Part shown: piece after piece, positions 37,564 through 45,452 of the stretch | Layout of the letters: each line of letters opens with the position of its first letter | Position numbering within the stretch: position 1 is the first letter of the stretch | Assembly (NCBI GenBank): GCA_965197475.1 | Contig: CBDANF010000002.1 | Location: 1,120,001 to 1,184,000, forward strand | From: Candidatus Poribacteria bacterium | Lineage (GTDB): Bacteria > Poribacteria > WGA-4E > WGA-3G | Direction of reading: 5' to 3' | DNA: 64,000 nucleotides | The notes under the pieces: model-generated | The model's input: the letters and a program-made list of their open reading frames with translations, nothing else | The model's database searches: none | What the model was told of the DNA's origin: nothing | Program-made: the position numbers and the translations under genes

Positions 37564-40548
37564 ATGAAAACCATCTTATTTACATTATTTTCAGTAATCT
37601 TATTGTGTGCTATCGTTTTTCATAGCAACGCTTATGACTACCACTGGGAAATAGACGAAACACCAGAAGGAGAGGAAAGTGTTACCGTAGTCGAACCTGT
37701 GCAAGTGACGCTATTAGATGAACAGGTAGAAATATCATCTCATAGTGCATCACTACGTCTGCTCCAAGTATATTCTGTTCACCTCAGATCAGAATGGGAA
37801 TCAGGATACGCACATAGACTATTCCTAACGTTTGAATCAATTCCGCAACAAAAGAATCCTCTTTATGAAAATCCAGCTCTACAACCGTCTATATGGAAAC
37901 TAAGTAACAGGCACATTCAAAATGACATAGAGATTGAATACTCGGGTGATACTAAAATTGTCACCATTGCCGCCGATGCTTTTACTTATGCGACCCCTTT
38001 GTTAGCCGAAATCGAAGGCGTGCGTGGTAGGTACTTCTCCAAACGACTCCACCGGGCAGTGGTTCGGTACGTAACAGACAATGGGGCGGATAGAAACACT
38101 ATTAAACGTATACTTCGAAAAAGGTACGCCGTTAGTATAGATGTCCCTGATTATATTGAACTTACAAAGTATACAACAGGTGAACATGCGGGTCGTTTCT
38201 CAACATTCAAAGATGAAGAACTAATGGCTCTCGTATCAATGTTTGAGGAGTTTCCGCAAGGCATGCTTAAAACACCCGGATTAAAATATTTGGTTAGACG
38301 TTTAGATGGAACACCACATCCGCTTTATCCGACCGCGCCTGCAGTCGCGTGGCCGAGTGCAGGCTACATTGAATTTATGGAAGCTGCTTTTATAGGAGGC
38401 AGTCCTGATTACATGCATCGCTTGATTCTGCATGAAAAGGCACATTTCCTATGGGCACACCTTTTTGACGAACAACTTAAACAGGATTGGATTGAACTCG
38501 GCGGCTGGTTTCGAAATCCGGACGACGCTGATGGGTGGTCTACGACTAAGCAAACAGAGTTTGTTTCGGCGTACGCACACGCCAAAAATCCTAATGAAGA
38601 TATGGCGGAGAGTATCAGTTTTTATATCATAAGACCTGACAAGCTACGTTCTCGTTCACCTGCTAAATACGAATTTATTCAAAATCGGATAATGCACGGC
38701 ACGCGCTACATCTCACAAATACGCGAGGACTTGACTTTTGTGGTCTACAATCTTTATCCTGATTATGTGTATCCTGGACGGATTGTAAGAGTTGACATAC
38801 AAGTGGATGGTGAACCCGAAGAAGATAAGATGATTACAGTCGAAATAGAAATTCATAGAGAGAGCCAATTGGATTCAGCGCGAGGTGTATTTATTAGACT
38901 TTTTAGTGAAAAAGGCACGTTCTTTGATGTTTGGCTTTCACCTATCAATGCACAAGGACAACGAATTTCTGCGGGGCATGTTTTCAGAGGTTCAATAACA
39001 TTAACACGCTATGCCGCAAATGGTTACTGGGGGCCAGACTCGGTTACTTTAAGTGACGTTTCTGGAAATCAGCGTCATGAATCTGCTCAAACAGATTTTG
39101 GGTGGAAACTCTATATCAACAATCCTCTTGCGGATTGTCAACTTCCAGCGTATGTTAAGGAATCAATGCGTCTTAGCTTATCTCAAGGGATTGAGGAGGA
39201 TAGAACTTTTCACATCATCACCGCACGCTGGCAGATTGTTGAGGATATAGGAATAAGAAATGTATCTGTTCATGTTAACGATGAAAGTAGGGGAACTTAT
39301 TCACACAACGCAAAGAGTTGGAGGAACCCTCAAGTTGCTGCAGGTGGAGGGAGAGGTTACAACCACGAAACAGGTGAAGCTACAGCAGAATTGATTATTC
39401 CTGATTACTACCAAAACGGTAATTATCTGGTCCACTATATTTCTATGGTAGATTTTGCTGGAAACAGAAGCGGTGTGTATTTCTCTAATTTCGACGGGGG
39501 ACTATGGGAAACAGACATAAAACTTGACGAACTACCTGCTTCAATTTATGTTCCGACAATTAATCCTGATAACGCGCCAGTTGTGCTTGATCTGAATAAT
39601 ATTACGATTAAAGCAGAACCGACAAAGCCTGAAGACCCCAATGGTGAAACGATAGTCAATATTACCTTTAGAGTAAAAGACAATATCAGCGGTTATTGGA
39701 AAGCTGATTTACGCCTGCGTGATCCTTTAGGTAATATTCACCAATTCACACACTTTCATTCTGAGCATTACAAAATCTATTTCCATGGAGACCCGAAGGT
39801 ATATGAAACTTACCACAAACAGATTATTTTGCCGGTTGGCAGTATTCCCGGCACATGGGGCCTTGCCGAGATGGTAGTTTTTGATAAGGCACATAATATC
39901 TTACGGGCAGACTTTACTGAAATCGTCCGTTTTGTGGTGGATGATACTATTTATACCCAATCTGATGTCAACGAAGACGGTGAAATTGACATTCGGGATC
40001 TGATTATTGTTGCCCAATCGTTTGAAGACTTCAACGAAAAAGCAGATGTCAACGGTGATGGCACTGTCAATATTTTAGATTTAGTGGAAGTTGCCAGCCA
40101 TCTTGGAGAAGAAGCGGCGGCACCAGCTGCATACAACCCAACTGCTGATCAAATCCAAAGTTGGATCACGCAAGCAATGCAAGAAGATAATGGCAGTCAT
40201 ATCTTCCGTAGAGGTATCCAGGTCCTACAATCTCTCTTACTTAGCCTGCGTCCTGAAACAACTGCTTTGCTGCCTAACTACCCAAATCCGTTTAACCCGG
40301 AAACGTGGATACCTTATCATTTGGCAAACGCCAGCGATGTGCAGATTGCCATTTACGATACGAGAGGGCGCATAGTTCGCACGTTAGCACTCGGGCATCA
40401 GCCCGCAGGCTATTACACAGACAGAGGTCGTGCAGCATATTGGGATGGTCGGAATAGCGTGGGGGAACGTATTGCAAGCGGTGTCTATTTTTATCAACTG
40501 CAGGCGGATTCTATTTCACAACTGCGTAAAATGGTTATTTTGAAATAG
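37564..40548 (+). CDS. Secreted Zn-metallopeptidase-like protein with dockerin/EF-hand repeat and FlgD-like C-terminal domain
   Basis: Signal peptide; HEKAH plus 'FVSAYA...NPNEDMAES'; 'DVNEDGEIDIRDL/DVNGDGTVNILDL'; 'LLPNYPNPFNPETWIPY...GVYFYQL...RKMVILK'. Confidence 0.8.
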   Translation: MKTILFTLFSVILLCAIVFHSNAYDYHWEIDETPEGEESVTVVEPVQVTLLDEQVEISSHSASLRLLQVYSVHLRSEWESGYAHRLFLTFESIPQQKNPLYENPALQPSIWKLSNRHIQNDIEIEYSGDTKIVTIAADAFTYATPLLAEIEGVRGRYFSKRLHRAVVRYVTDNGADRNTIKRILRKRYAVSIDVPDYIELTKYTTGEHAGRFSTFKDEELMALVSMFEEFPQGMLKTPGLKYLVRRLDGTPHPLYPTAPAVAWPSAGYIEFMEAAFIGGSPDYMHRLILHEKAHFLWAHLFDEQLKQDWIELGGWFRNPDDADGWSTTKQTEFVSAYAHAKNPNEDMAESISFYIIRPDKLRSRSPAKYEFIQNRIMHGTRYISQIREDLTFVVYNLYPDYVYPGRIVRVDIQVDGEPEEDKMITVEIEIHRESQLDSARGVFIRLFSEKGTFFDVWLSPINAQGQRISAGHVFRGSITLTRYAANGYWGPDSVTLSDVSGNQRHESAQTDFGWKLYINNPLADCQLPAYVKESMRLSLSQGIEEDRTFHIITARWQIVEDIGIRNVSVHVNDESRGTYSHNAKSWRNPQVAAGGGRGYNHETGEATAELIIPDYYQNGNYLVHYISMVDFAGNRSGVYFSNFDGGLWETDIKLDELPASIYVPTINPDNAPVVLDLNNITIKAEPTKPEDPNGETIVNITFRVKDNISGYWKADLRLRDPLGNIHQFTHFHSEHYKIYFHGDPKVYETYHKQIILPVGSIPGTWGLAEMVVFDKAHNILRADFTEIVRFVVDDTIYTQSDVNEDGEIDIRDLIIVAQSFEDFNEKADVNGDGTVNILDLVEVASHLGEEAAAPAAYNPTADQIQSWITQAMQEDNGSHIFRRGIQVLQSLLLSLRPETTALLPNYPNPFNPETWIPYHLANASDVQIAIYDTRGRIVRTLALGHQPAGYYTDRGRAAYWDGRNSVGERIASGVYFYQLQADSISQLRKMVILK

Positions 40549-40568
40549 TATCAAATGACCATAGGATA

Positions 40569-40740
40569 GCTGGAAGGCTGATGTTCATTGGCTTCCCAGC
40601 GATCGTTGATGAGTGGGTTGCGTTGGGATCGCGAGCATCCTCTTTGAGAAATGATGCGTTTAGCGATAAACGTGTCTAAAGTATAGCAAAACCGGTAGCG
40701 GTTGTCAACCATATTTTCAAGGCACCTGCCCCGGTTTTGC
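40569..40740 (+). ncRNA. Candidate structured RNA in the non-coding end of the DUF1670 element
   Basis: Five consecutive hairpins; G-U pairs and a GCGA (GNRA) tetraloop favour the + strand. Confidence 0.45.
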
Positions 40741-40775
40741 GAAGTAAAGTTCGTCGGGAACATAGGATTAGGGTC

Positions 40776-41660
40776 TCATTGGGCTTCTCCTTGGTGAGTG
40801 GCTTCATCGTTTGAGTCTGAATTGGCAAGGTTTGCATCTATGGCTTGGAGTTGGGGCTGCGGAATCAGGTCCAGATATTGAGTGATAACGCGTTTAGAAA
40901 GTCGGGTGATCTGTGAGATTTTATCAATATCTGTGGTAGCGGTGCGAACGACTTTGACGCTCTCATAATCGCGAATGTATCTATCAACTGCCTCCTTAGA
41001 GTGTTTGGTCTTTGCGGCAATCCTGGGGGTGAGATGTCCTTGAAGATAGAGGGTTATGATCTCTTTCTTATGGGTAATAGCCCCCGATAAGTCATGGATA
41101 TTGCCACGGGTGGGCAAGAGTTCTCCAGTGGTTTTTTGCCATTCATTAACATAATCACAGACAACGGCATCGCAGACATTGAGCAAAACTGCCAAGTCGA
41201 GTTGTGTCAATAATGCCCCTTGGTCATAAGCTTGATGACACCAGCGGACCAAGCGATTGATCCGCAATTGCCGGGAGGTGAAACCGTTTCTAAAAGATTC
41301 AATATCCTCTGCGGCGAGGTAGGTCAGGATGATGGGTTTCATCCGAGTTTTGACGATGGACTTTCCTCTTTCTGGATGTTCATCAATAGGGACGGCCATC
41401 CAAACGAGTTGTCCATAACTTAGGAAACGCTCATCTGGGAGTTGATCACCGGTGGCGAGTTTTTCCAAGGGGAGGGTAATTACGAAATAGTCTTCAACGG
41501 TCTTGAGAATATCATCAACAATGGCGGTGGCAGTGACTTCGCCTTTGTCATACCCGTAGTCATTGAGAAAGCGATGGATAAGCAACTGTCGTAGGGATTT
41601 ATCGTTGATGCGTCTGAATTTCTTCTCGTTGATTTGCGTGCGTGTTAGAGGTTTGCTCAT
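40776..41660 (-). CDS. DUF1670-like HTH protein B
   Basis: 'RLVRWCHQAYDQGALLTQLDLAVLL...PTRGNIHDLSGAITHK...KTKHSKEAVDRY'. Confidence 0.75.
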   Translation of the reverse strand: MSKPLTRTQINEKKFRRINDKSLRQLLIHRFLNDYGYDKGEVTATAIVDDILKTVEDYFVITLPLEKLATGDQLPDERFLSYGQLVWMAVPIDEHPERGKSIVKTRMKPIILTYLAAEDIESFRNGFTSRQLRINRLVRWCHQAYDQGALLTQLDLAVLLNVCDAVVCDYVNEWQKTTGELLPTRGNIHDLSGAITHKKEIITLYLQGHLTPRIAAKTKHSKEAVDRYIRDYESVKVVRTATTDIDKISQITRLSKRVITQYLDLIPQPQLQAIDANLANSDSNDEATHQGEAQ

Positions 41661-42457
41661 GAGAGATCCTCCTTTTTTGTGTCCTCTGGTTCTGGGTGAA
41701 GGAGTTGGGTCATGCGATCGGTGTGTTGATATTCCTTGAACAGCGAGAGATACTCGCGTATCAACCGGTCAGAGAGATGAGAAATCAGGCGTATCTGAGC
41801 GTTAGGGAACCCTTGATGATGGAGCGTGGCAACTTGTGTGAAGTCCCTCAAGTAGCGGTAGACAGCCCGTTCGGAGTGGTTCGTCTTTTGCTCAATCTCG
41901 GTGAAGGTGTATGCTTTGAAGTACAGCTCGAGAATCTGCGTCTTATGAGACAGTCCCGGGCCCATGTCGTGTTTCGCCCCGCGCGTCATCACGAAATAGC
42001 CGGACTGCTTCAACGCTCGGATGTCGCGTTTGACGGTGGCAGGACTGGTGGTTAATAACACCGCCAAATCCTCATAACTCAGCAAGGCTTCTTGGTCATA
42101 AGCTTCTTGGGTCAATCGGAGGATCCGATGCCGTCTGAGTCCTGCGAGCCCATAAGTCGCTAAAACTTCAAGGTCGGCTTCAACATCGTTGAGTTTGAGT
42201 CGACAGGAGACTTTTTTCGCTAAAGCGATGTGTTTGCCTGCGGGTTCCTCAGCGGCGACTGCCTCGTAGCAGATTTGCCCTGATGTGAGTTGCACATCGG
42301 CATGTTGTTCAAAGTAGGTAGAAATCTGTTTATAGTAGGCTTCAGCAACGAGAGGCATGAGATTAAAGTCTGCTGAAATCTTCTGAATAATCGCGGCTCT
42401 GGCATTCTTGGATTCGAGCCGAGTGATACCGTAAGCGGTATCCTTCTTGCGGTTCAT
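41657..42457 (-). CDS. DUF1670-like HTH protein A
   Basis: 'RILRLTQEAYDQEALLSYEDLAVLL...TRGAKHDMGPGLSHK...KTNHSERAVYRY'; GGAGG RBS before ATG 42457; ATGA overlap with gene B. Confidence 0.75.
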   Translation of the reverse strand: MNRKKDTAYGITRLESKNARAAIIQKISADFNLMPLVAEAYYKQISTYFEQHADVQLTSGQICYEAVAAEEPAGKHIALAKKVSCRLKLNDVEADLEVLATYGLAGLRRHRILRLTQEAYDQEALLSYEDLAVLLTTSPATVKRDIRALKQSGYFVMTRGAKHDMGPGLSHKTQILELYFKAYTFTEIEQKTNHSERAVYRYLRDFTQVATLHHQGFPNAQIRLISHLSDRLIREYLSLFKEYQHTDRMTQLLHPEPEDTKKEDLS

Positions 42458-42705
42458 ATTGACCTCCATGAATAGATTATCGGGGATCCGAGGACATCTA
42501 CTCGTTAGTTTAACGAATACTAATAGTATAACTCATGGGGTCATTTGATACAAACTATAAGTAAAGAAATAAGTTGAGTTGGGTTTCGCTGTGCTCTACC
42601 CCGCCAAATGCCATAGGCGTATTTGGCGTTGATTCCCTACACTTGATTTCTTATTTCGAACTCACGTTTACTATAGTTTGGACAATTTCATCCTATCAGG
42701 ACTTC

Positions 42706-43690
42706 GGACCAGGTGTTAAATATGGTTTGTAAGCACACTTGAGACAGCTGCTGGTGTCTATCAAAAAATCATGGCAACACTTTATGATGTCTATTTCCCA
42801 TGCGTAGAAGCACTGCGTCCGGGGCCAAAAAGTCGTTGTCCTGATAGTGAAATTCTCACATTTGTTTGGGCTTCTTGAACTGACAGGAAGATAACGAACT
42901 CACAGGATACAACCTTATCAAGCACAACTCGGACATCTTTTCCCATATTTACCGGAACGCTCTCGCTTCAATCGAAGTATGCGAAACCTGTGCCACGCAA
43001 GCGAAAACTCCGGAGGATTTTGACACAGTTCTTACCAGATGATAGGGTTTTCATTGTAGATAGTTTTCCTATCCCGGTTTGCGATTTCAAGCGTGCTGCG
43101 ACTTCTACATCGTCTCTAAAATGTGCTGATGGCACCGGCACCTCGGCAACTTATGGAAAGTGTGCCACAAAAAGGCTTGACACTTTCTTAAGGTTTCGTG
43201 GTAGTCTGATAACCACCGTTTACGAACTATCTGTTGATTTGTGGTCGCCACTGCGGATACAGATGATCAAGAAATGCTCAGCTTACTATGTGAACGCGGC
43301 ACTTGTCCTATTATCCTTGGAGATAAAGGATATTTCCGAGTAACTTGAGACTGATTTACTTGAAACAGACAATGTGCGTCTTTTACCGACGCGGTGTCCA
43401 AATCAGAAAACACAATACCCAAAGCCGTTTCGGAAGTTGCACGGTAAAACGGTGGCGGATTGAGACGACTATCAGTCAACTCACAAATCAGTTTAATGTT
43501 TCACAAATACGCGCCCGCGCTCATTGAAGTTTTCAAACACGGTTGAGCAATAAGTTGATGGTTGGACATTAGGTGTTTTTTGAATCAATATTTAGGATGC
43601 CCGTTAATGGCACTCAAAGATGTCGTTTATACATAAACAATTTCAAAAAAGATAGAAACATATTACAAAAAGTTAACTAACACAAGGCGT
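42706..43690 (+). pseudogene. IS982-family transposase relic with multiple frameshifts
   Basis: Fragments 'PDSEILT', 'ERSRFNR', 'IVDSFPIPVC', 'GDKGYIS', 'RWRIETTISQL'; degenerate TIRs, boundaries approximate. Confidence 0.75.
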
Positions 43691-43709
43691 TATTTCTCAG
43701 GAGGTATTC

Positions 43710-45452
43710 ATGAATAATCCAAAATCTGGCTCAAAAAACCCTAAAAGCAAAACAAACACAAAAGAAAACGGCAATAACATATCTGATACAAACTTTATCC
43801 GACAAGCAATTGAAGAAGATATAGCATCAAATAGATTTGATGGGAGGGTGCATACCCGATTTCCTCCCGAACCGAGTGGATACCTCCATATCGGTCACGC
43901 CAAAGCCATCTGTATTAGTTTCGGCATCGCCGAAGACTATGGCGGACTTTACAACCTCCGATTCGACGACAGTAATCCGATCACAGAAGAGAGTGAATAC
44001 GTAGAAGCGATTAAACGGGATGTCCGTTGGCTCGGATTTAATTGGGAGGAACGCGAATTCCATGCCTCTGACTATTTCGAAACACTTTATGAATATGCTG
44101 TCAAACTGATAGAGAAAGGGAAAGCTTACGTCTGTGATCTGACACCAGAGGAAACGCGCACTTATCGTGGCACTTTAGTGACAGCCGGCAAAGATAGTCC
44201 CTACCGAAACCGTTCTATTGAAGAAAATCTAACGTTGTTCCGTGGGATGTGCGATGGTAAATTTTCCGACGGTTCTCGTACTCTCCGCGCCAAAATTGAT
44301 ATGACAAGTCCGAATTTAAATATGCGCGACCCTGTGATGTATCGTGTTCTCCACACCCCACACTATCGACATGGGACCAATTGGTGCATCTATCCTACCT
44401 ACGATTTCACACATGGACAATCCGATTCGATCGAAGGCGTTACACATTCCTTATGTGACGTTCAGTTTGAAGATCATCGTCCGTTATATGACTGGTTTTT
44501 GGAATCGTTGGAAATTTACTCACCTCGACAGATTGAATTTGCTCGACTGAACCTTACCTACACTATACTTGGTAAGCGGAAACTCAAAATCCTCGTTGAA
44601 CAAGGACACGTCAAAGGGTGGGACGATCCGAGACTACCCACACTTGCGGGTATGCGTCGTCGCGGTTATACCCCTGAATCTATTCGAGATTTTTGCAACC
44701 GCATTGGTGTGTCGAAAGCCAATAATCTCATTGAGATCGGACAACTTGAATACTCTATCCGCGATGATCTGAATCGTCGTGCGCCTCGTGTGATGGCTGT
44801 GCTGAATCCGGTCAAAGTTACTATTGATAACTATCCAGAAGGACAAGTTGAGATGCTTGATGCTGACAATAACCCGGAAGATGAAAACGCAGGGGCAAGG
44901 ACAATCCCTTTCTCACGAGAAATCTACATTGAACGTGAAGATTTTATGGAAGATCCGCCACGAAAATTTTATAGACTTGCCCCCGGACGAGAGGTTCGGC
45001 TTAAACATGCATACTATATCACCTGCGACCACGTTGTTAAAGATGAAAACACTGGTGAAATCGTTGATATCCACTGCACTTATGATCCAAAAACTCGTGG
45101 TGGTTGGTCTGATGACGGACGGAGGGTACAAGGCACACTGCACTGGGTTTCTGCTGAACATGCTGTTGATGCTGAGGTGCGCCTATACGGTTCGCTCTTT
45201 ACAGAGCGCGAACCGGAAAACGTAGCGGATGGCACCGATTGGATACAATTCCTCAATCCGAATTCTTTAGAGATTCTAAATAATTGCAAGGTTGAACCGA
45301 GTCTTGTTGAGGCAATGCCTGAAAGTCGATATCAGTTCCTACGGATGGGATATTTTTGCGTTGATCCAGACACAACACCAGAAAAATCGGTATTCAATCG
45401 TACAGTACCGCTGCGGGATAGCTGGGCAAAAATTCAGAAAGGACAGAAATGA
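43710..45452 (+). CDS. glnS: Glutamine--tRNA ligase
   Basis: '[18 protein letters not shown]', '[10 protein letters not shown]', 'YQFLRMGYF'. Confidence 0.97.

Follow-up and report, generated by a model that had tools for sequence, protein, structure and literature searches.

A mobile element of Candidatus Poribacteria with two DUF1670 proteins and no recognizable transposase: a candidate new family of insertion sequences

To our knowledge, every prokaryotic family of insertion sequences (IS) owes its definition to one of a few transposase chemistries. IS3 and IS1 elements, which duplicate 3-5 or 8-9 bp of their target, encode a DDE RNase-H-like domain in the second of their open reading frames (ORFs), and the fusion protein that arises by slippage is the transposase. 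IS607 elements lack terminal inverted repeats (TIRs), and HUH elements (IS200/IS605, IS91) and DEDD elements (IS110) lack the classical combination of TIRs with a target duplication. Tyrosine recombinases carry the residues R-K-H-R-H/W and a tyrosine nucleophile and act on an overlap of 6-8 bp, the Xer-type enzymes among them exchanging strands 6-8 bp apart. Preferred sites are known for Tn7, at the end of glmS, and for IS1397/ISKpn1 and IS621-like elements, in repetitive extragenic palindromic (REP) sequences. Here we describe a mobile element of 2,014 bp, with the ends ATAGT...ACTAT, at positions 40545-42558 of a 64,000-nucleotide stretch of DNA from a Candidatus Poribacteria genome (GCA_965197475.1, contig CBDANF010000002.1, positions 1,120,001 to 1,184,000). 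From this point on, that stretch is the window, and coordinates without a contig label refer to it. The element carries two genes, ORF A and ORF B, whose products belong to the DUF1670 family (PF07900).

The element shares TIRs, a short target duplication, two consecutive overlapping ORFs and an in-phase A_AAA_AAG heptamer followed by a second ORF in the -1 frame with IS3 and IS1 elements. Unlike theirs, neither of its ORFs is of the DDE type, the duplication is 2 bp, and the target is codon-precise, which that of IS3 and IS1 is not. With IS630/Tc1-mariner elements it has in common TIRs, a 2-bp duplication of a fixed dinucleotide and DNA-binding helix-turn-helix (HTH) modules arranged in tandem, and the proteins described here show weak matches to HTH_23, HTH_28 and HTH_29 and have Pax paired domains among their weak Foldseek matches. 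The likeness ends there: DDE_3 is absent, the dinucleotide is AA or CG, supplied by a host codon, rather than TA, and there are two paralogous proteins instead of one. A 2-bp sequence shared by both junctions is also what a serine recombinase crossover of the IS607 kind would leave, and the single insertion orientation would fit a non-palindromic core, but no resolvase-type domain is found here by Pfam, NCBIfam or fold. Like Tn7, IS1397/ISKpn1 and the IS621-like elements, the element chooses places of little damage to its host, conserved gene ends and the loops of repeated palindromes. Those elements rely on a transposase of the DDE or DEDD type, to which dedicated target selectors or a guide RNA are added, whereas this one has no such enzyme and no Rfam RNA, and the 3' end of its relatives in other phyla is too short for a conserved guide. 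From HUH and DEDD elements it is set apart by having TIRs together with a duplication, and by having no matching domain.

Ends, copies and insertion sites

The window belongs to a metagenome-assembled genome (MAG) made up of 3 contigs that total 5.70 Mb, with a completeness of 92.7% and a contamination of 7%. BLAST returns 22 pieces from it that make up 20 copies of the element, 93-100% identical and with the same terminal bases. Eighteen of the 20 are full length (2,003-2,012 bp between the 13-mers of the TIRs), and the deletion derivatives are a 1,772-bp internal deletion and a 432-bp copy that keeps just both ends. ORF B is intact in every full copy, and in 14 of these 18 neither ORF departs from its standard length. 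Three copies are identical to one another, and so are four others, which lie at four different flanks. One of the three, at C3:845190, is contained in a 4,026-bp duplicate of the window copy and 2 kb of its right flank, and is therefore not an independent transposition. Between subfamilies, the synonymous divergence (dS) is 0.13-0.46 and the ratio of non-synonymous to synonymous divergence (dN/dS) 0.05-0.15. The differences are distributed as a mosaic along the element, so the copies also recombine with each other. Among 41 related genomes, this one included, 26 have DNA matches to the element; copy numbers range from none to many, and some copies are short end-to-end derivatives. Across the phylum, PF07900 is found in 41 of 151 sampled genomes, with 1 to at least 18 matches each. 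Four sequencing runs searched as Logan contigs contained a single internal-deletion joint (40696 to 42524), which resembles a miniature inverted-repeat transposable element and occurs in two DNA runs. With several copies at different loci and identical boundaries, this is a multicopy mobile element that has been active recently, and the preliminary description of it as mobile without a recognizable transposase holds.

The duplicated segment just mentioned spans 40548-44573 of the window and C3:845190-849215 (up to 5 mismatches allowed), the left flanks being different. It could be a segmental duplication, the product of recombination between copies, or an assembly artefact, given the 7% contamination.

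The ends are marked by a perfect 13-bp inverted repeat, GTATCAAATGACC, which lies where it was first reported, at 40548-40560 and 42539-42551. In its exact form this 13-mer is confined to the ends of the 20 copies, so that the repeat is not there by chance. A scan of the genome with up to two mismatches yields 150 matches, the exact ones all being ends of the 20 copies, as are all but one of those with a single mismatch. No second element sharing this TIR was found in the 5.70-Mb assembly with the exact 13-mer, which leaves unsupported the idea, raised at the outset, that the TIR belongs to a known DDE insertion sequence and the two genes are passive cargo. A different 13-mer, GGATCAAAAGACC, two mismatches away from the TIR, occurs as such or as its complement at 11 places in the genome (such as C3:945735, C3:1419833 and C2:99378). 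No two of them face each other at a distance of a few kb, and the 13-mer is probably part of an unrelated repeat.

While the repeat itself stands, the element limits first given (40548-42551) do not. All 20 copies continue beyond the right 13-mer with AAACTAT, followed by AA, by A or G, and by T[A/G][A/G]. By this conservation, the element truly begins with ATAGT at 40545 and finishes with ACTAT at 42558, and its two TIRs differ by a 4-nt indel. The repeats of the roughly 2.0-kb element are thus imperfect overall around a highly conserved core, TATCA[A/T]ATGACC. Outside these ends stands AA on both flanks (40543-44 and 42559-60). Orthologous genes in two relatives (G006 and G008) end in ...ATTTTGAAGTAA without the element, and that of a third (G003) in ...TTGAAATAA. 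The empty sites with ATTTTGAAGTAA show that the element lies between bases 2 and 3 of the last Lys codon. With A+TAG, the four bases at its start, the element rebuilds that codon and provides the stop (TAG at 40546-48), and the original wobble base and stop of the host gene (G+TAA) are left as a relic at 42561-42564. Two earlier statements are thereby overturned, namely that no target duplication of 2 bp or more was visible and that the insertion split the stop codon as TA|A: empty sites have one AA, and AA flanks both sides of 20/20 copies in this genome and of 61/61 copies in other Poribacteria assemblies. TIRs and a target duplication, checked against empty sites, are therefore both present, as in insertion sequences. 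At two loci from other lineages (L126 and L129), the flanks are CG/CG instead of AA/AA, which indicates that the dinucleotide derives from the target. As sequence, the 2-bp repeat fits either a 2-bp staggered cut or a 2-bp conservative crossover, and cannot separate the two.

The gene into whose end the window copy is inserted codes for a protein of 994 aa that matches PF18962 (Por_Secre_tail; 30.4 bits against a cut-off of 27, residues 906-992, reaching the profile end at 75/75) and TIGR04183 (32.1 bits, cut-off 23), both describing the C-terminal sorting domain (CTD) of the type IX secretion system (T9SS). The same holds for the genome at large, where the left flanks of 18/20 copies are the end of such a domain, ...[T]RKM[LV]I.K. 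According to a hidden Markov model (HMM) trained on the occupied ends, the genome has 49 CTD gene ends, 18 occupied and 31 free. The free ends are no different from the occupied ones, having AAG or AAA and then TAA, TAG or TGA, with one CGT exception. A CTD gene end reads, for example, ...ATGTTGATTCTGAAGTAA. From named Poribacteria assemblies we collected 69 loci, 61 with both ends, 2 that were too short and 6 with one end not found. The 61 comprise 52 at CTD ends, 5 in a REP-like palindrome and 4 elsewhere. In 50 of the 52 CTD sites the right AA is followed by A or G and a stop (TAA, TAG or TGA), the exceptions reading ATCG and TAAG. Orientation is fixed: in all CTD insertions that were examined, it is the ORF B side of the element that adjoins the gene end. 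The right flanks of the copies are not homologous to each other. The element thus enters the last sense codon, which is Lys or Arg, behind its second base and in one orientation, and since its left tip rebuilds codon and stop, the host protein is unchanged. In two genera (g3 and g5) it occupies the loop of the palindrome AAACCGAGTTTT-GAAGAA-AAAACTCGGTTT. Uninterrupted palindromes of the form AAACCGAGTTTT-N6-AAAACTCGGTTT number 70, 34 and 42 in three Poribacteria genomes of different genera from that of the window (G035, G026 and G124) and 0 in the genome of the window, and occupied ones have two more A's than empty ones.

Some of these palindromes stand in arrays with a spacing of about 190-350 bp (for example G035:C1:1894819-1897594; loci L134-L139). 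In another relative, the orthologous CTD gene end (L040, G004:C68) is followed by just the first ~25 bases of the left end of the element and then by unrelated sequence; it is a remnant or a very short derivative.

A predicted recoding site and relatives in other lineages

Where the two genes overlap, the heptamer A_AAA_AAG is in phase in ORF A, and ORF B is in the -1 frame and open from the run onward, so that a slip at this place would give an A-B fusion of ~563 aa. The run is A6 in the 15 of 20 genome copies that were matched by script. Beyond this genome, a run of 5-9 A's is present in the A/B overlap at 18 of 19 loci, covering all lineages. In the Poribacteria, Eisenbacteria-like and archaeal-type elements, ORF B follows in the -1 frame behind A5-A8 and then G. 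In those of the Gemmatimonadota, Zixibacteria, Ignavibacteria, Bacteroidetes, Saprospiraceae and Verrucomicrobia it follows in the +1 frame behind A7-A9 (A8-A9 except in L128). The 19th locus, L116, codes for an in-frame fusion of 564 aa and has A7G6 at that place, and in one copy from the genome of the window (C3:685919-687923) an additional G that immediately follows the A-run creates a fusion of 564 aa. Natural A-B fusions thus originate via indels at the run. The retention of a slippery run, whatever the peptide or the frame in which ORF B follows, suggests that slippage of the ribosome or during transcription yields an A-B fusion. Judged by sequence, the arrangement is that of IS1/IS3-type recoding, with a slippery run in the ORF overlap placed to fuse the two products.

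Loci with ~60-65% protein identity to ORF B occur in MAGs labelled Gemmatimonadota, Zixibacteria, Ignavibacteria (two), Bacteroidetes, Saprospiraceae, Eisenbacteria, Verrucomicrobia and unclassified bacteria. All the loci from other phyla have the pair in the order A then B, with just these two genes between the TIRs, and wherever their ends are visible the core CA[A/T]ATGACC is present. At 8/8 loci with a visible ORF B-side junction, a gene ends in ...K or ...R followed by an element-borne stop, TAG in seven and TAA in L133. When seven flanks from other phyla were searched with Pfam, 4 passed the Por_Secre_tail cut-off. Of the remaining three, one passes for FlgD_ig with Por_Secre_tail below its cut-off, one is below the cut-off for both, and L128 has no match. 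That the dinucleotide derives from the target is clearest at L126, from a Candidatus Eisenbacteria MAG, and at L129, whose MAG is unclassified. Both have CG at both flanks, their host genes end in CGA TAG, and the relic reads C+TAG or C+TGA, from which the original last codon was CGC (Arg). Genomes of the other phyla have one or two pairs each. Related elements with a common TIR core, two-gene layout, target and poly-A recoding site are thus recognizable by sequence in at least seven other bacterial lineages. There is also an archaeal-type relative, whose homologs are named Methanoperedenaceae and Euryarchaeota by NCBI and which has the gene pair and the core CAAATGACC; PF07900 matches in Methanosarcina acetivorans as well. 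On metagenome contigs L152, L153 and L155 the archaeal-type pair (279 + 257 aa) is flanked by direct repeats of GAGTTCG and surrounded by a region of ACGAACT-type repeats, which suggests that this element has a different site-specific target.

The DUF1670 proteins and the non-coding ends

Both ORFs lie on the minus strand, overlap by ATGA and are paralogs, as the preliminary description had it (BLASTP 34% identity, E 1e-26; hhalign of the A and B family alignments, probability 100% over 255 columns). Its assignment of both to DUF1670 is confirmed by matches to PF07900 of 208.1 and 205.1 bits (cut-off 25), covering positions 31-220 and 3-220 of the 220-position profile. The other Pfam matches are to HTH families, of which just HTH_11 and HTH_DeoR, on ORF A, reach their cut-offs; those to HTH_23, HTH_28 and HTH_29 are sub-threshold. 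NCBIfam gives nothing above any cut-off for either protein, and neither matches a DDE, serine recombinase (PF00239), tyrosine recombinase (PF00589), HUH or DEDD/IS110 family in Pfam or NCBIfam, in agreement with the motif inspection made earlier. Between copies, dN/dS is 0.05-0.08 for ORF B and 0.09-0.15 for ORF A, consistent with strong purifying selection on both. PHROGs yields generic transcription-regulator families only, for ORF A, and PADLOC no match. The DUF1670 family comprises 1,004 clusters at 50% identity (E<=0.001). Apart from triple-module proteins, A-B fusions of 529-559 aa are its sole members longer than 515 aa, and no catalytic domain is fused to them. Four proteins of 930-952 aa (P0134, P0135, P0140 and P0145), on contigs of 3.0-3.5 kb, have three DUF1670 modules in tandem and look like a three-module variant of the element. 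PF07900 has no assigned function, and the NCBI name is just 'DUF1670 domain-containing protein'. Full-text literature searches found no mention of DUF1670 or PF07900, and no relevant paper on Poribacteria transposases or inverted repeats, on T9SS-targeting insertion sequences or on novel HTH or DUF transposases. As far as these searches show, the link between DUF1670 and a TIR-bounded mobile element is not in print.

AlphaFold models of both proteins are confident (predicted local distance difference test, pLDDT, 87.7 for B and 87.3 for A), from alignments of 34 and 41 sequences. Neither has an RNase-H-like sheet, a single beta hairpin being the only strand structure. Against the PDB, Foldseek returns no match at E<=0.001 for either model, so the recombinase fold that was to be looked for did not appear. 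The best weak matches are HTH regulators (MntR, NtcA, SdiA, a Pax paired domain, sigma region 4 and TFIIB). Resolvase chains (2r0q_D and 1gdt_A) appear as weak matches only, with E ~1-2 and probability 0.2-0.25, and there is no integrase among the matches listed. A PDB profile search has a designed HTH repeat protein (8vd6) as its sole match, and the best scores in the ESM Atlas (0.77-0.81) belong to small HTH_23-bearing archaeal clusters and are below lead level. Family-wide, the invariant or nearly invariant residues are, in ORF B numbering, R139, A144, Q147, D155, P183, G186, D190, H197, K198, H220, Y228 and Y262, and the ORF A alignment has positions that match them.

The 228 nt that separate ORF B from the left end contain a sigma-70-like sequence aimed outward, TTGACA-17-TATACT with TG ahead, which matches the consensus at 11 of 12 positions. 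In an alignment of 11/11 Poribacteria subfamily ends it is the best-conserved internal part, TATACT being invariant, from which a promoter function may be deduced. No such outward promoter was found in the short 3' ends (41-153 nt) of the other phyla, some of which use other promoter types, so that this absence is little informative. The predicted promoter could drive an antisense RNA to the host gene, or expression of A and B across an end-to-end junction. Just inside the left TIR, an imperfect hairpin (40561-40600, minus strand; GCTGGGAAG...CTTCCAGC) is kept in the 11 aligned Poribacteria subfamily ends and could be a protein-binding site or an RNA structure. Rfam (E<=1) has no match in 40300-42800, nor is there a bridge-RNA or omega-RNA-like family. 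A guide or structured RNA in the 228-nt 3' end was rejected, the fold z-score being just -2.7 and the region measuring 41-153 nt, with unrelated sequence, in eight loci of other phyla. The non-coding ends are nearly invariant between copies, with 0-1/82 and 2-6/228 differences against a dS of 0.18-0.45. We do not take this as proof of selection, since the differences are mosaic and recombination between subfamilies also contributes. A 70-aa ORF (40551-40763, minus strand) fills the 3' non-coding end and is open in 17/18 full copies; it lacks a Pfam match and is missing from other phyla, its changes are 2 non-synonymous and 0 synonymous, and it is unlikely to be a gene. On the other side, just right of the element, a 117-aa ORF (42990-43343, plus strand) that might be taken for transposase-like has no Pfam match at E<=0.01.

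Table 1. Coordinates of the element and its surroundings in the window
Feature	Position	Strand	Evidence
Host gene, 994 aa, with T9SS C-terminal sorting domain at its end	37564..40548	+	ORF; PF18962, TIGR04183
The same gene, with its hybrid end: last codon AAA and stop TAG (AA from host, A+TAG from element)	37564..40548	+	ORF
Left target duplication AA, first two bases of the host's last Lys codon	40543..40544	.	Copy flanks; empty sites with one AA
Element, 2,014 bp, genes on minus strand	40545..42558	-	Conservation limit of 20 copies; empty-site comparison
Left TIR ATAGTATCAAATGACC, first four bases A+TAG	40545..40560	.	Core CA[A/T]ATGACC kept in other phyla and in archaeal-type element
Predicted outward sigma-70-like promoter TTGACA-17-TATACT with TG, aimed out via left end	40680..40708	-	11/12 consensus match
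ORF B, 294 aa, DUF1670	40776..41660	-	PF07900 1.5e-61; AlphaFold pLDDT 87.7; dN/dS 0.05-0.08
Slippery heptamer A_AAA_AAG in ORF A phase, 12 nt before ORF B start	41672..41678	-	Sequence
ORF A, 270 aa, DUF1670, paralog of B	41657..42469	-	PF07900 1.1e-60; HTH_11 30.9 bits; pLDDT 87.3; dN/dS 0.09-0.15
Right TIR GGTCATTTGATACAAACTAT, 4 extra bases versus left end	42539..42558	.	Copy alignment
Right target duplication AA	42559..42560	.	Copy flanks; empty sites
Relic of original host gene end, Lys wobble G and stop TAA	42561..42564	+	R+stop in 50/52 CTD insertions elsewhere

Proposed transposition by DUF1670 proteins and its alternatives

The evidence tips, to our minds, towards the DUF1670 pair or its fusion being the transposase of the element, catalysing through an unrecognized active site, and towards the element being an autonomous insertion sequence of an undescribed family. 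We infer that the two paralogs are the transposition machinery, probably together with a third product, the A-B fusion that slippage would generate in the manner of IS1/IS3-type elements. Their HTH arrays would bind the conserved ends, pair them and recognize the target, which is often similar to the element end (ATGTTGATAC versus ATTTGATAC). The DUF1670 complex would then most likely make a 2-bp staggered cut and transfer the strands, using an active site that goes unrecognized by current family and fold libraries. More speculatively, the outward promoter of the Poribacteria elements may express A and B across an end-to-end junction, in a circle or a tandem. The larger claim is a new transposase or recombinase class built on tandem HTH modules, with an active site unrelated to DDE, DEDD, HUH, serine and tyrosine enzymes and with 2-bp staggered, codon-precise, orientation-specific integration, in an IS family of at least eight bacterial lineages and of archaea with a different target. 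This we regard as a real possibility that falls somewhat short of an even chance. Of the heteromeric transposase proposed in the preliminary description, the part that has A and B acting together gains support from the natural A-B fusions and the conserved recoding site; the catalytic part is conjectural, the models being HTH arrays.

Several observations weigh against catalysis by these proteins or against details of the scheme. Catalytic activity and an active site are so far hypothetical. Both models look DNA-binding throughout: behind three N-terminal helices come a beta hairpin of two strands and a further helix, and the rest is a winged HTH and two more HTHs. The invariant residues lie in or beside predicted HTH helices, as had been foreseen for the motif HS..AV.RY, which was allowed from the start to be a recognition helix. 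They could thus be conserved just as readers of the TIR, whose core is itself conserved across phyla, and a catalytic role for them is possible but unsupported. H220-x7-Y228 resembles the C-terminal motif of integrases superficially; a tyrosine-recombinase reading was rejected because the motif falls in a predicted HTH recognition helix and the shared core is 2 bp, and Xer/dif-like integration because that core is just 2 bp. The predicted A+B complex scores 0.23 and 0.21 (mark 0.32), which speaks neither for nor against the pairing. The rows of the ORF A alignment were found with ORF B and are 21-30% identical to A, that is, they are generic DUF1670 sequences rather than proven A orthologs. 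At L128 (Zixibacteria) the left flank is AG and the right one CG, so that the two copies of the presumed duplication disagree, through either a later mutation or a real exception, and an end-to-end (circle) joint was not seen in the four runs, contigs only. The genome, 92.7% complete and 7% contaminated, may have an unlinked partner gene in its missing part. The element lacks the catalytic domain that defines each family compared here, which argues for a new family of insertion sequence, a status set by comparison outside ISfinder, where an unclassified entry may already exist.

The all-HTH models in particular keep alive an explanation that we think rather unlikely, in which the DUF1670 proteins only recognize ends and target and recruit a host nuclease, recombinase, topoisomerase or repair/replication enzyme, making the element autonomous in information and not in catalysis, like the elements that exploit XerCD. 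Neither the models nor any longer homolog contain a catalytic fold or domain, and the spread of the family over several phyla would point to a widely conserved host enzyme as partner. Yet no candidate partner came to light in the analysis, the 2-bp duplication is at odds with Xer-type tyrosine recombinases, and instead of a dif-like site the element uses gene ends by the dozen and REP-like loops. We know of no IS family that works by recruiting a host enzyme in this way. It is less probable still that a canonical transposase encoded elsewhere moves a non-autonomous element for which the DUF1670 pair is cargo or an accessory regulator. Such an enzyme could be unassembled at 92.7% completeness, A and B have no known catalytic domain of their own, and the weak HTH_23/28/29 matches recall the DNA-binding part of IS630/Tc1-type transposases. 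But the exact TIR occurs nowhere else in the genome despite the recent activity that identical copies reveal, and the same minimal TIR-A-B-TIR unit recurs in unrelated phyla, both of which argue against a transposase acting in trans, as do the strong purifying selection on the ORFs, the IS-style recoding site and the absence of any tblastn match to plasmids.

The last alternative dispenses with transposition altogether and has the copies spread among CTD gene ends by homologous recombination or duplication, with DUF1670 proteins as ordinary transcription regulators. CTD-coding DNA is indeed repeated dozens of times per genome at ~70% identity, the mosaic copies show that recombination between copies occurs, and one copy does lie within the 4,026-bp duplicated segment. 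Homology at the insertion sites is one-sided, however, and the right junctions are nevertheless base-precise at unrelated sequences; insertions outside CTD ends, those in REP-like loops among them, show the same 2-bp duplication, deletion derivatives retain both ends, and unrelated phyla have the element at the same codon. This account is already contradicted by the junction data, and we give it hardly any weight.

An active element thus occurs across several phyla with none of the known chemistries, its proteins belonging to a family of about a thousand clusters at 50% identity to which no function is assigned. If DUF1670 catalyses transposition, a new enzyme that rearranges DNA would be at hand, with a site preference that is very tight and looks programmable. 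The chance of an enzyme new in category is substantial. If it recruits a host enzyme instead, this would be a new way for a transposon to move. Whatever the mechanism, insertion into the last codon with codon and stop rebuilt is a strategy by which the element avoids harm to its host. The finding also explains a recurring ~2-kb repeat that breaks the assemblies of sponge symbionts, many homologs lying on ~2-kb contigs, and it gives DUF1670 a biological context.

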